A stretch of DNA of 63,806 bases, the filler included, from Reclinomonas americana ATCC 50394 (taxonomy: Eukaryota), in NCBI GenBank assembly GCA_048213135.1. It is 5 parts of 5 records of this genome, joined end to end, with 100 filler letters (N's around TTAATTAATTAA, not from the genome) between each part and the next. Parts side by side here need not be neighbours in the genome. Positions count along the whole stretch, not along the records: positions 1 to 19,086 come from PS015311.1; positions 19,187 to 47,127 come from PS015312.1; positions 47,228 to 57,889 come from PS015313.1; positions 57,990 to 61,474 come from PS015317.1; positions 61,575 to 63,806 come from PS015322.1. One strand, written 5' to 3'. This document shows positions 4,777 to 63,806 of this stretch, piece after piece. Positions within the stretch are counted from its first letter, which is position 1. Every line of letters begins with the position of its first letter. A program made the position numbers and the translations under genes. The notes under the pieces are model-generated. The model saw nothing but the letters and a program-made list of their open reading frames with translations, searched no databases and had not been told where the DNA came from.

Positions 4777-6562
4777 AGATCAGCTTTTACCATCCGTGGT
4801 TCAGCCACAAGCCGAGCTGGCTGAGCTAGACGACGACATTAATCAGGCCAATGCAGCTGAAGCAGGTTTGTCACAGCTGTGCGTGTGCTCGCTGCATAGC
4901 GTGTCTCACGTGCTCGCTTCTCGTCGCAGGTCACGCCCCTGCTGCAGATGCAGATTGCGACAACAAGCTCACCCTCAAGTGCGCGCCCCCTGGGCTGCTA
5001 TGAGGGGGTGCCGCTTGGGAAGCGGCATTCTGTACGAGTACTTTGAACAAGAAGAATTACTTTACAAATGCCACAATTGCCATCAACAACAACATTAATG
5101 GGCCGACTCAGCGCCCGTGCTACAACATCAACAGGAAGCACTGCCGATTCAAGGTGCTTCTCTGGTTGATTCTCTGGATCATCGACAACCTCGTGGTGGA
5201 CGGAGGCCACCAGGATGGGCCCCAGCGCCCTCGCCACACCATTGTCAGAAAGCACTCTCGGTTCAAGGTGCTTCTCTGGCTGCTTCTCTGGCTGCTTCTC
5301 TGGGTCAACGGCAACCTGAAGGTTGACGAGCCACGACAACGTTGAGTATTTGGGTTGATGTTGTGAGCGATTCTTGTCTGCCTGCAGCTGACAATCTCTT
5401 GTGTGTCCAGACCCCCCCGCGCGCACTCCACCTGACCGCCGAGTTCCCCGGTGCCCTCCGCTCGACTCGACTCGTCGCGATGGTATTGTGCCGGTGCCGG
5501 TGCCGTTGCCGTCGCCGCGCCAGTCCGTGAGCAAGGCACCCACCAGATCGACTCGAGACGGCAACACTTCCTCGCCGGCTTTTTCAACCGAGGAAACGGG
5601 AGGCAACGTCAGCAACCCCAAGATTGCGCTTTTCGTTGTCTGCGGGATCGAGTTCGAGAGCGAGGAGAGCCTTCTCACCCATGCGACCGTCGCCAGTACG
5701 TTTTGTTCTTGGGTGTTCTTTCGCAGCGCGTTCCTGACTTCCTGTTTCTCAGAATACATCAGGAAGGAACTCTGTGGGGTGCGCCTGCTCCGCAACCCAT
5801 CCTCCCCTCGGAAACTGCGTCGTGCCATTCGCCGCTGGCTCAAGTCACTCCCCTACGGTGTGACTCCCTGCTACGTTCACTTCACGCATGGTGAACTGGT
5901 GACTGGAGGCGACATCCTTCTCTCGTTGTCTGGGAAACGGTTTGCCCAATTGCTGCTCTCTGCCATAGAAGTGATGATGAGGGTGCCAACACTATTCAAC
6001 AGCGTCATTCGCTTTTCTGCCATCACGAATCTGCTGAAGGAGGACAGCAAGAGACGCGGCGGTCGCAGCGCCGTTTGTGTTCTGGACTGTTGCTTGAACT
6101 ACGTGCGTGCCGATGGCGACACATCTCGATCTACCTCCCTCGGGCGGTGAGTACCGAACCGAGTGCTACACGCGAGCGACATCGATTGAGCTCATGTCTC
6201 TTGCCAGTGATGTGGAGCTGTTTCAAGAGCGCATTCGCCGCCACCGTGTATCCGTGGCACTCTCCACTCCATTCGGAAACACGGCGTTTGAGCATGGTAC
6301 TCGATTTTGTGTTGCAATCGCAGCTGTGCAACGTTAACCCTGATCTTCACTCACTGCTGTCCCTCTCATTACAGGCGGCTGCTCTGGCTCATACATTGCG
6401 GAGGGACTCGTCACTGCCATCAAGCAGTTGCCGCAAGACAAGGTCTGCGACACCGACGAGTTCGTCAAGCGTGTGGCACGCAGCACGGCGTTGTTCGAGG
6501 TCCCGGAAAGTCAGGAAACTCAGAGTGCCGATTATGTAACCGCTCGCGGCAAGCGCGAGTAG
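4777..6562 (+). CDS. Caspase-fold peptidase C14 (meta/paracaspase-like), spliced; 5' end uncertain
   Basis: KIALFVVCG beta-1, YVHFTHG (His-Gly, 5887-5892) and VCVLDCC (6085-6093). Introns 5341-5410, 6147-6207 and 6297-6374 keep the frame through VSVALSTPFGNTAFEHG-GCSGSYIAEGLVTAIKQL to TAG at 6560-6562. Confidence 0.6.
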
Positions 6563-7546
6563 CTTGTTCTGTAGTCTGCGTGATCATCTGGCTGTTTGTC
6601 TCCGTGTCTCTTTTCTGAGTGTGTGTGAATGAGTGTGCCAATGAAAAAGTATCTGTACAGTCACGCGTTCTGGCGTGTGCAGTGCTGCACAAGTGGTGAC
6701 TGCCACCTGCAGTCGCGAAGCGTTGTTAGTATTGTGCTCAGTTCTCCTCACGGGCAAATCGCCTCTCGGATCAGAACACAGCACCATGCAGCCTGTTCTA
6801 CCAGCTACCAGAATACGCCACGCACCAGCGCCAGCCACCTCGCCGAAGCCGTCCGGCCAGCACGAACAATTCGGCAGAATCCACAATGGATCGCTGATCG
6901 ACCGTCTGTCGCGTTACACACTCACATATTCAATCAAAACGCGATGGGCAGTGGTGTGAGCGGCTTGCGTGAGGTTCCCCCCGGTCAAGTGGAGGTGGTG
7001 GAGGTGGTCACCCTGTGCGTGGCGCCGACCGCCCCGCAAACCATGACTCAAGTCCCCGACTCTGGAGTCGCCTCTGCATCGGCAAGCACATGATGTTGCT
7101 GCCACTCTCTCTCTGTTTCTCCCTCCACATGTCTATTGCTCTTGTTGTTTTGCGGTCTCTTCTCCTCTTTTCTCTCTTCTCTCTTCTCTGCGCGCGCGTT
7201 GTGTGTGTCTTTGTTTTTGTGTGCGTCATTTCCCCCGTGCACCAACGCGCCATGTCTGATTGTTGTTGTGCGCACATTGTGTCGCGCCCCTGAGCCACAC
7301 ACCACGCACGTGCGTGTGTGTGTGTGCTCATGCGCGTGCGACTCTCTCACTCTCTGTCACCCACATGTGCGAACGAATCTTGATCAAACTTCTCACACTC
7401 CTCTATTTACCCTCTCCATACACTCTCTCCTGGTGCATGTGTCGTCACAGTACTGCGCGGGTTTAAGTCAATGAACGACATCGATGATTCCATTGACTCG
7501 ACTTAACTTTTGATTTGATTTGACTTTGGTCACGCGTGGAGCACAA

Positions 7547-61418: not shown

Positions 61419-61664
61419 GTGCGGGGAGGGAAAAGGGGGAAAGGGAAGGGGGACAAGAAGAAGAGAGATTTGTCNNNNNNNNNNNNNNNNNNNNNNNNNN
61501 NNNNNNNNNNNNNNNNNNTTAATTAATTAANNNNNNNNNNNNNNNNNNNNNNNNNNNNNNNNNNNNNNNNNNNNCCTTGCTCGGTTCTCTCGTCTCTGTG
61601 TTTCCTACTACTTCCCCCCTGATCTCTAACTGATCCCCTGTTCCCCCTCTTCACACTCCCACTC

Positions 61665-63806
61665 ACTTTGCACACCAGTGGCGGCGCTCCTGGCGCGTCG
61701 GCAGCAAACGGCCACTGTTGGAACAACTGCGAGGTTGATCGCTCAAAGAGCGGCTTGCCCAGTTGCGGCAGTTGCTGTTGCTGTTGCTGCTGCTGCTGAG
61801 CATCCTCCGATGAATCCAACAGCAGGTACTCCTCCACGGCCACGAGGTCGCGCTCCACGGCTGCTGCGAGAGCTCGCATGGCCACCTTGCGTTCTTGTGT
61901 CGCACTCGGCATTGGTTTCGTCATGACGCCGGGTGGTGTCGGCGGTCGTTCGGTGCTGGCGACGGGTTCCTCTCGCTTCTTGCTACTCCGACTGCTGCCG
62001 AGCGTCGGAAGTGCTTCCATGGTCTTGATCTTGAGCGAGCGAGGCGTCGGTTCGGGAGTGGGTGCGGGATGCACTTCAGGTGGTGCCGCTGCCGCTGCTG
62101 CTTGTCGAGCCTCCTCCAGCTGAGCGGTGAGCGTGTCGACCGCACTGCGCAGTGCATCGTGCTCTTCCAGCACTTCCTTGGCGGCCTTTGTTAGCATCTG
62201 TGCGTTACAACGCACGATCAGTGCCTTTCTCTCCATGGATAGTAGGCCGCACATACACGCAAACCTTGGCCTCGCTGACTTGCTGCTGCAATTTGCTATT
62301 GGTTTGAGTGAGGTTGGCGATTGTTGCATTGGCCGTGCTCAACTCCTTGTCCGCATCGCTGCGGAGTGCGTGTCGATATGTTCTGCACCACCGACCACGT
62401 GAGCGACAAGCAGAGCGAAGAAGGAGGGAGAGGGAGAGTGAGAAACGCAACTCATTGTCCTGTTCCACCTTTAACACGTGCGCCGCCAAGGCCTGCTGCA
62501 TGGCCACGTCGGCGTGATGTTTGGCCGCAGCAAGTGCCTCGCGCAGCTGTTCAACCTCCTTGATGCGCTCTTCGTGCGACTTGCCGAGGGATTCCACTGC
62601 GGCGAAAGGTGAGGATCGAGGAGAAGAACGAAGGAAGGTTCGGACAATAAGACAGATATGAAAGAAAGAAGGAAGGCTCGGAAAATAAGACAGATGAGAG
62701 AAGAGAAGAAGAAGAATGAAGAAAAGATCAGAGGCGGGGAAGGAATAATGGTTCAGACAACAGAGAAGGGAGCAGATTAGAGAAAAAGAAGACAGTGTAT
62801 CTTCCAGGATAGAAAATCTCGCCCGAGCTAATCCTTCAACCCCCTCCCCCTCGCGACACACACCTTGTCTCTCCAACTCATTTGTGCGTATCACCATGTG
62901 CGCATTGCGCTCAAGCACTCCGCAGTGGTCGGCGAGTTTCAGCTGCATGGCCGCCATGGTAGCCGTCAATTCGTTGACGCGGTCTTGCAGCTGCAGACAC
63001 ATTTCTTCGCTCTCGGCCAGCGCCGTCAGCAGCTCCTGTGCATCCATGGGGTCCGCTGCCACTCGCCGACTGCGTGCTTTCATGGCACCCCAGCCCAGCG
63101 GCGCACGTGGCGAAGACAGCGAGCGTGGCGACAGGGCAGCAGATGCCTGCGGCGACGGATCGCGACGAATGACAATGTCGCCGTCGGAGCCCTCGACGCT
63201 GAGGAGACTCGTGCTCTGCGCACCGCCTGTCGGCAGCGAGTCGGAGCTGCAGTGTCGCGGACGCCGTGGAGAGTTGGGCGCCGACGAAGCAGTGACGGTT
63301 GCCGGAGCAGCTACCACGTGCGAAGCCGCTGCTCCGACGGCCAGTGTCTGGCGTGCCGACGACAAGCCGCTGCTGTTGATGCCGCCGTCGGCAAAGCTCA
63401 CCGACACGGTGCGCCGGTGCTGGTGTCGCTGACTGCTGATAGAGTCGTCGTTCGAGAGCGCAGAGCACGTCTCGCTCGGATCCGGCGAGTGGGAGCGGCT
63501 CTGTGGATTGCGGAGCGAGTGAGTTGAGTAATGGCAGAGCGAGATAATTGGAGAAGGCTGGCTGGCTTACCGGCGAAATCGACACATCCGACCGCGATCT
63601 CAACAACGGTATCCTGCCATCGCGCAGCGGCAACGACAGTGGCGGAGTGGCGTCGGAGCGACTGGGTGTGGAGTGCATGTCGTCAAGCGCAGTGCGACTG
63701 GAATCGGTGCCGGTGGGAGTAGGTGGCGACTTTTGCAGCAGCGGCAGAGAGCGAGCGGCGATCAGGGGCGGCACTTGCGGCGGTGGTGGCAGCAGCGAGT
63801 CGGCGA
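61665..63806 (-). CDS. Ser/Pro-rich and coiled-coil protein, both ends outside the scaffold or window
   Basis: AQELLTALAESEEMCLQLQDRVNELTATMAAMQLKL and later heptad-rich exons joined by GT-AG introns in phase. Confidence 0.6.

Follow-up and report, generated by a model that had tools for sequence, protein, structure and literature searches.

Frequent GTT 5′ splice sites with a donor motif displaced by one base in a 64-kb window of Reclinomonas americana DNA

Genes and intron models of the window

We analysed the introns in a window of 63,806 bases of DNA from Reclinomonas americana ATCC 50394 (GCA_048213135.1), which consists of five joined parts and includes 7,096 N in 21 runs. All results given here derive from the window sequence itself, from our own gene models and from alignments to proteins from elsewhere. 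The introns are short and of the U2-type GT-AG kind, with a median length of ~70 nt, a branch-like CTSAY motif and a CAG acceptor. About two thirds of their donors have the form (A/C)AG/GTNNGT, mostly G/GTGCGT (the slash marks the cut); -1G and +5G are close to invariant among them. Roughly a quarter, hereafter the T class, read (A/C)/GTTG(C/A)GT(G), which is the same extended motif located one base downstream relative to the cut. These 'extra T' donors had been pointed out in a first-pass annotation of the window, which attributed them to a shifted or bulged register of U1 recognition in common use.

Pfam searches of 246 stop-to-stop frames of at least 100 residues anchored the strand and frame of 12 genes, among them genes for WD40, adenosine kinase (ADK), CN hydrolase, syntaxin/SNARE, mitochondrial carrier, protein kinase, GT90, ribosomal L9, NACHT-pentapeptide-WD40 and radical SAM proteins. 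The closest proteins found for those encoded in the window are 35-73% identical. For an ADK exon, the best identity in a metagenome scan was 53% among 80 loci, with no close relative, and the matches in a protein atlas were generic PfkB clusters only. Homologue searches returned one match for a kinase exon (40% identity) and 76 for a carrier exon, and that with a CN-hydrolase exon returned none.

Introns were modelled using a dynamic-programming gene finder that keeps exons in open frame, with a codon-usage score trained on the Pfam-anchored genes. The acceptor score took into account a pyrimidine at -3, a CTSAY branch-like motif 8-50 nt upstream and the pyrimidine content. The first runs, based on codon usage only, were noisy, and both-strand k-mer counts and motif enrichment 3′ of donors were dominated by microsatellites. 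In a donor-blind run, any GT could serve as a donor with no extra score. After self-training, this run yielded 105 introns whose top donor hexamer was GTTGCG (8), followed by GTGCGT (5), and it recovered 12 of the sites of the first-pass annotation plus an unlisted one at 13732. For the final run, a two-class donor mixture was fed back and iterated, giving 113 introns in 25 gene models, with class weights of 0.68 and 0.32. Three plus-strand models on the wrong strand relative to the Pfam anchors were dropped before counting (15468-18604, the 3′ part of which is on the wrong strand, 47228-48236 and 61878-63806). After a minus-strand CN-hydrolase model had been added, 107 introns were left, one of them containing N.

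Donors with +5G (G/GTNNG type) were assigned to class S, those matching GTTN[AC]G to class T, and the remainder were called 'other'. The 106 modelled introns comprise 73 of class S, 20 of class T (19%) and 13 others. Introns were considered of high confidence if they were at most 200 nt long, with an acceptor score of at least 2 and positive coding scores on both flanks; this set of 67 comprises 43 introns of class S, 18 of class T (27%) and 6 others. These shares are close to the earlier estimate that roughly one intron in five is of the GTT kind. The carrier intron at 22685 and a probable intron at 62451 are counted outside both sets.

Two classes of donor motif

The T class is far commoner than chance, and the cut precedes the G of GTT. 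In the donor-blind introns of up to 140 nt, GTTG[AC]G is found at 8 of 63 donors, versus 23 of 2,343 other sense-strand GTs of the same gene spans (Fisher p=7e-7), and GTT.[AC]GT at 7 versus 17 (p=1.5e-6). The G,T signal of the donor-blind GTT donors at +6/+7 rises above background as the first-pass annotation implied, with +6G in 11/19 versus 93/453 (p=6e-4) and +7T in 9/19 versus 99/453 (p=0.02). In the same set, -1G is present in 25/34 donors with +5G and in 1/9 GTTN[AC]G donors (p=0.0012). Unlike GTTG[AC]G, GT[GC]G[AC]G is not enriched (5/63 versus 110/2,343, or 4.7%; p=0.22), and the extra base is therefore specifically T. These contrasts are conservative, since the background still holds true donors missed by the blind run. 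An unlabelled two-component mixture with a background component, fitted to the 63 donor-blind contexts, separated a standard motif (-1G 0.76, +5G 0.95, +6T 0.57) from a displaced one (-1 mostly A, +3 T/G, +4G 0.85, +5 C/A, +6G 0.67, +7T 0.44).

The heptamer GTTGCGT occurs 15 times in the window, both strands included. Nine of these are high-confidence donors, two are lower-confidence donors and one is a plausible donor; of the last three, one is unsupported, one lies within another intron on the sense strand and one is antisense. Three of the 10 GTTGAGT are high-confidence donors. When GTTG[AC]G is followed by a base other than T, only 2 of 69 occurrences are high-confidence donors, so T at +7 matters for donor use. 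No GTTNTG donor was seen in the high-confidence set. T-class donors are present in at least 13 different genes.

The full motif is displaced by one base in the T class, exon positions included. The 27 high-confidence GTT donors split into 9 with +5G, all of which have -1G, and the 18 of the T class, of which 2 have it (p=1.2e-5). Compared with all class S donors, in which 38/43 have -1G, p is 1.2e-8. The earlier observation that most donors of this kind lack an exonic -1G holds in our models, in which the shift anticorrelates with that base. In column tests, the T-class positions resemble those of class S one base upstream: -1 matches S-2 (p=0.88) and not S-1 (p about 0), +4 matches S+3 (p=0.29) and not S+4 (p about 0), and +7 matches S+6 (p=0.49) and not S+7 (p=1e-4). 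Position +8 likewise matches S+7 (p=0.63), with p=0.23 against S+8. The information content at +4 to +7 in the T class exceeds that at +3 to +6 in class S, as expected if one built-in mismatch demands better pairing elsewhere. A further class with two extra T, proposed earlier on the basis of the minus-strand sites 43495 and 62264, dissolves on inspection. Both have -1G and GTTTGC with +5G, that is the ordinary G/GTNNG motif; 43495 is an ordinary donor, and 62264 is ordinary by motif only, with no supported acceptor.

Apart from their donors, the introns of the two classes are alike in branch motif, acceptor and composition, with a median length of 68 nt in both. The T-class introns have the features of U2-type GT-AG introns, namely a GT start, an AG end, a branch motif and a pyrimidine at -3. 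The 18 high-confidence ones are GT..AG by construction; CTSAY is present in 14 of them (40/43 in class S), and -3 is C in 16 and T in 2. Minor, U12-type introns are characterized by the donor motif [AG]TATCCTT and a TCCTTAAC-like branch site, and no T-class donor string resembles that donor motif. We also looked for introner elements by an all-versus-all blastn of the modelled introns, which yielded three short matches between long low-complexity introns, none of them in the T class. The introns do not fall into families of related sequence, and an introner origin is rejected.

In the high-confidence class S donors, +3 is G in 22/43 and +4 is C (17) or T (15). If U1 reads these donors, it may carry a G opposite +4 where a pseudouridine is usual.

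Position of the cut and individual sites

For each intron assigned to the displaced class, we collected all GT/GC-AG pairs within 60 nt of the donor and 45 nt of the acceptor that keep both flanking frames open. In 31 of these 34 introns, no alternative combines a donor score in the standard range with a usable acceptor. The three exceptions are 15456, whose cut is fixed by homology, 24036, which is a doubtful model, and 31931, for which one standard-like alternative 45 nt upstream would remove 15 residues. With the standard matrix, T donors score -6 to -18 bits compared with a median of +4.6 for standard donors, and they are thus not weak ordinary sites.

At six junctions, namely 24563, 24790, 25145, 22685, 15456 and 51769, a cut before GTT is established by alignment to other proteins. 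This agrees with the first-pass annotation, which had placed the cut at the first GT using conserved kinase and ADK motifs. The spliced kinase model is 35% identical to kinase P0001 over 278 residues, with no gap at 24563 (SHPN/IVK versus HHPNVVE), 24790 (QMLAGLVYLH versus QVLCGLAYLH) or 25145 (GTVAYTAPE versus GTPWYIAPE). The ADK N-terminus aligns to homologues such as MENAILGIGNPLLDIS; 16 high-scoring segment pairs (HSPs) span the 15456 junction, 9 of them gapless, and the gaps of the printed gapped ones are far downstream of the junction. The N-terminal model of the carrier reads YPFYFGGVAS/AVAACFTHPLDLIKVRLQ at junction 22685 (GTTACGA), and 35 of 44 alignments with dicarboxylate-carrier homologues that span residues 10-30 are gap-free in residues 8-30. 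In the RlmN-like gene, the exons before and after 51769 abut at residues 235/236 of 4pl1_B, with the same continuity in 5hr6_A (251/252) and 6fz6_A (252/253). For CN hydrolase, the Pfam and PDB numbering is roughly continuous, the proteins being too divergent for single residues to be assigned at 18162 and 18491. From one exon to the next, the Pfam profile coordinates agree for ADK 13295 and approximately agree for GT90. A PDB search with the C-terminal exons of L9 gave no match.

All 27 donor strings of the first-pass annotation were found where it had located them, on the same strands. Of the 25 sites with one extra T, 19 are supported by gene models, five are ambiguous and one, 48848, is without support. 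The supported sites are those of Table 1 except 62451, which is ambiguous, and 13732 and 35544 (both minus strand), which are of the same kind and were absent from the earlier list. At 31086, the donor alone is supported; its acceptor is uncertain, 385 or 692 nt downstream, and the downstream exon scores poorly. At 13732, the exon that follows matches PfkB/ADK strongly and the one that precedes is short; the assembly lacks the middle of the gene.

Table 1. Introns with T-class donors in the window. The donor is at the lower coordinate on the plus strand and at the higher one on the minus strand; 'blind' and 'final' are the donor-blind and final gene-finder runs, and 'alternatives' is the test of competing in-frame boundaries.
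Position	Strand	Donor	Gene and context	Support
19505..19572	+	GTTGCGT	syntaxin/SNARE gene	blind, final; high confidence; no standard-like in-frame alternative
23875..23944	+	GTTGAGT	LRR-kinase gene	blind, final; alternatives; high confidence
24563..24641	+	GTTTCGT	kinase domain (SHPN/IVK)	gapless versus P0001; final; alternatives; high confidence
24790..24847	+	GTTGCGT	kinase domain (QML-A-GLVYLH)	gapless versus P0001; final; alternatives; high confidence
25145..25333	+	GTTGCGT	kinase domain (GTVA-Y-TAPE)	gapless versus P0001; blind; high confidence
31086..31092	+	GTTGCGT	donor after ribosomal L9 N-domain exon	blind, final; Pfam L9_N ends in upstream exon
31931..32099	+	GTTGCGT	L9 gene	blind, final; high confidence
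50178..50249	+	GTTGCGT	membrane-protein gene; intron in frame, no stop	blind, final; alternatives; high confidence
13665..13732	-	GTTGCGT	adenosine kinase gene	blind, final; high confidence
15329..15456	-	GTTGCGT	adenosine kinase N-terminus (IFG-I-ENPLLD)	homologue HSPs across junction
18102..18162	-	GTTTCGT	CN-hydrolase gene	added minus-strand model; alternatives; high confidence
18422..18491	-	GTTCCGT	CN-hydrolase gene	added minus-strand model; alternatives; high confidence
22626..22685	-	GTTACGA	mitochondrial dicarboxylate carrier (FGGVAS/AVAACFTHPLD)	homologue alignments
26592..26650	-	GTTGCGC	glycosyltransferase family 90 gene	blind, final; alternatives; high confidence; Pfam spacing consistent within 2-3 residues
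35483..35544	-	GTTGCGT	VIT/vWA gene	final; alternatives; high confidence
39094..39163	-	GTTGAGT	lineage-specific gene	blind, final; alternatives; high confidence
40196..40262	-	GTTGCGT	NACHT-WD40 gene, 3′ part	final; alternatives; lower confidence, upstream exon scores poorly
42729..42792	-	GTTGAGT	NACHT-WD40 gene	blind, final; alternatives; high confidence
43068..43130	-	GTTACGC	NACHT-WD40 gene; intron in frame, no stop	blind, final; alternatives; high confidence
43260..43321	-	GTTGCGT	NACHT-WD40 gene	blind, final; alternatives; high confidence
51703..51769	-	GTTGCGC	RlmN-like radical SAM gene (SINKT/YDIATV)	residue continuity in three PDB chains
62359..62451	-	GTTGCGT	coiled-coil gene; probable T-class intron, in frame, no stop, CT-rich	absent from gene-finder models

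The ambiguous sites differ in what surrounds them. The coding signal around 5341 (+) is weak, with scores near zero. Site 24059 (+) competes with in-frame models using 23988 (GTGAGT) and 24036, and an AAG acceptor 63 nt downstream is also possible. At 15219 (-), ADK homology stops exactly at the donor, and the acceptor falls inside an N gap. Site 38846 (-) has an in-frame competitor, 38897 (GTGGAGT). A 93-nt, stop-free, in-frame intron at 62451 (-) is plausible from open-frame logic and a good acceptor, in a gene that the codon score does not recognize. Lastly, the unsupported GTTGCGT at 48848 (+) has no open frame upstream and a good acceptor 86 nt downstream, and it lies upstream of a plus-strand gene starting near 49806; it may belong to a 5′UTR intron.

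Two further junctions in these genes deserve mention. In the kinase gene, for the intron 24999-25065 (+), the donor-blind run took GTACCT at 24999, whereas the final run preferred the in-frame GTGCGT nine bases further on, at 25008; with the latter, the model aligns to P0001 without gaps. The second intron of the dicarboxylate carrier, 22486-22546 (-), has the donor G/GTCACACAC, without +5G and with a CA repeat, yet its junction is gapless in the homologue alignments. The non-standard donors of the window are not all of the GTT kind.

Several features of the gene models and of the assembly were noted alongside. The minus-strand model 39826-45164 codes for ~1,400 residues, in which a single 2.2-kb exon combines a NACHT-like P-loop with pentapeptide repeats and an extended array of WD40 units; its C-terminal part appears PH-like by eye. 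The RlmN/Cfr-like radical SAM methyltransferase gene (51237-51946 and 53040-54927, minus strand) is interrupted by the N gap 51947-52711. In the ADK gene, the region 13880-14120 (-) contains a tandem duplication of ~170 nt, each copy of which encodes an 'RVADWTG' piece, and the middle part of the protein, ~100 residues, has no counterpart between 13889 and 13733 (-); the duplication and the missing middle represent an assembly fault or a decayed gene. Open frames consisting nearly entirely of K/E or D/E were called as genes at 27857-28078, 47228-48236 and 52712-52800, all on the plus strand, and are probably low-complexity DNA or antisense of real genes. The spacers at 19087-19186, 47128-47227, 57890-57989 and 61475-61574, of composition N(44)-TTAATTAATTAA-N(44), carry a stop in each of the six frames and are artificial contig joins, so that the order of genes on their two sides says nothing about linkage.

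U1 register and competing explanations

Shifted-register 5′ splice sites were reportedly described in mammals by Roca and Krainer in 2009, and bulged-nucleotide registers by Roca et al. in 2012. Both kinds of register are established for human sites (PMC4856993, PMC9311317). Altogether, validated non-canonical registers represent 1.5% of 201,541 human donors, and the bulge +2/+3 and bulge +3 registers account for 68 and 51 predicted sites, respectively (PMC4856993).

We computed the pairing of the T-class donors with a human-type U1 5′ end (PMC4856993). The organism's own U1 may differ from it, because the T-class duplexes are weak and standard donors prefer C/U at +4 (32/43). An Rfam search of the 64-kb window returned no family at threshold, and there is no snRNA gene within the window. 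With human-type U1, the mean number of pairs at T-class sites is 3.9 for the canonical register, 6.6 for a shift of one base and 6.7 for a bulged +3. Shifted pairing exceeds canonical pairing at 16 of 18 sites with this U1, from which the organism's own may differ. If the organism's U1 is of the human type, the pair counts would reject the canonical register.

Judging from sequence, routine use of a shifted U1 register on the GTT class would best explain the data, and we regard it as probable. One U1 snRNP would then dock identically on both donor classes, that is, shifted by one base on the GTT class. The T-class +1G would occupy the usual place of -1G, and the T that of the usual +1G. The nearest GU would subsequently determine where cleavage occurs, presumably through U5/U6/Prp8 and with room made for one additional intron base. 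In this scheme, U1 would act as the reader of the motif, and U6/U5 would place the cut a base ahead of the register in which U1 has docked.

The sequence statistics favour a shift over a bulge. A bulge keeps -1 opposite C9 of U1 and hence predicts -1G, yet this base is lost. A shift puts +1G opposite C9 and -1 opposite U10, which predicts at -1 the A/C preference of the standard -2 position, and the data fit. The specificity for T at +3 also fits a shift, since +3U would pair with A7 of U1. Of the suggestion in the first-pass annotation that a shifted or bulged register is commonly used, the shifted part is thus in line with the column statistics; a plain bulge does not account for the loss of -1G or for the restriction to T at +3.

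Several observations weigh against the shifted register. With human-type U1, the pair counts fail to separate it from the bulge, which has more pairs at nine sites while the shift has more at seven, and the T-class duplexes are weak (mean -2.1 kcal/mol, versus -6.35 for class S). T+5 does not fit S+4 (p=0.007): it is C in 15 donors and A in 3, without the T common at S+4, which is in part due to the class definition. Every intron is a model of our own, built on the DNA of a single 64-kb window with many gaps. The contrast between classes may also be sharpened, because the high-confidence set was chosen with a donor model derived from the same data; the donor-blind set gives the same -1G contrast (25/34 versus 1/9).

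The first alternative, which we consider unlikely, is a bulged register in which U1 pairs normally with +1G and +2U, the U at +2 or +3 is bulged and pairing resumes at GCGU. Its mean pair count with human-type U1 equals that of the shift (6.7 versus 6.6), and it is better at 9 of 18 sites. The bulge +2/+3 register has been validated in human cells, and in the bulge +2/+3 and bulge +3 registers GU is likewise separated by one extra base from the consensus that follows (Tan et al. 2016, PMC4856993). A bulge nevertheless predicts that -1G is kept, whereas it is seen in 2/18 T-class donors versus 38/43 of class S. The exon columns are displaced as well, T-1 being like S-2, and T alone is enriched at +3, GT[GC]G[AC]G being at background level. 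Some donors of the window do resemble one-base bulges of the consensus, namely GTG-A-CGTG at 44287, GTG-G-CGC at 44608 and GTG-G-AGTG at 38897 (all on the minus strand). In these three, the inserted base follows GTG and two keep -1G; they may be true bulged-register sites.

Quite unlikely, in our view, is a second U1, or an altered U1/U6, with a 5′ end directly complementary to GUUGCGU in the normal register. The poor pairing of T-class sites with human-type U1 speaks for it, and C/U at standard +4 and C at T-class +5 (15/18) hint at a partner base other than the usual pseudouridine. Humans have variant U1 genes (PMC3561869), and variant U1 snRNAs could in principle give a second donor specificity (PMC3561869, PMC10870369). 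However, this explanation predicts no one-base displacement of the motif and its exon columns, which it leaves unaccounted for.

It is very improbable that the GTT donors are artefacts, i.e. mis-modelled introns or ordinary donors with sequencing errors (an extra T, or G read as T). The models are self-built, several listed sites are ambiguous or unsupported, and N gaps and artificial linkers make for a fragmentary assembly. Against an artefact, alignments to homologues settle six junctions, and 9 to 12 of the 15 GTTGCGT serve as donors. A sequencing error in particular is rejected, because a T inserted into G/GTGCGT would keep the -1G that the T class lacks, and a G-to-T error at +1 would shift the exon end by one base and break the alignment-confirmed frames.

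The GTT class is like the mammalian shifted-register sites in that it starts with GUU and is cut at that GU; a move of the U1 pairs by one position, with +1G replacing -1G, is what the proposed register would share with them. Unlike those rare sites, it makes up 18 of 67 well-supported donors (human non-canonical registers, 1.5%; PMC4856993), and its core is GCGU rather than AAGU. Two donor classes in one genome, with opposite weights on the exon and intron sides, are also known from the 'left-' and 'right-handed' 5′ splice sites defined by LUC7 proteins (PMC11842720). Those classes have a common register, whereas the second class here is the same motif moved by one base. A paper on diplonemid splice sites concerns non-GT-AG introns (PMC12621601). 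In a partial literature collection, we found no description of frequent use of such donors in any organism, and the genome paper may hold one; the words bulge, register and GUU are absent from a cross-kingdom donor study (PMC10599564). In the most likely reading, we see a known mechanism, the shifted U1 register, at a previously unknown scale.

A broader proposal is put forward tentatively. The spliceosome of this lineage may routinely separate U1 docking from the choice of the cut, with a single U1 reading the nine-base word (A/C)AG-GUGCGUG. The 5′ end of this U1 would perhaps be adapted to GCG at +3 to +5, as hinted by the preference for C/U at +4. The cut would be made at the usual GU or, in words with U instead of +1G, at the GU that this creates one base earlier. 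Were this the case, some 25% of the introns in the genome would serve as natural substrates of the shifted register.

In such a genome, gene finders that rely on one donor matrix would model about a quarter of the introns wrongly, as expected from the scores of T sites with the standard matrix. Shifted and bulged U1 registers were elucidated at a small number of mammalian sites by means of engineered U1s and are regarded as exceptional. With one donor in four of the T form, an organism would offer thousands of substrates in a natural setting. These could reveal how cleavage is positioned once U1 has left, how U6 tolerates the additional base and how much drift U1 allows.

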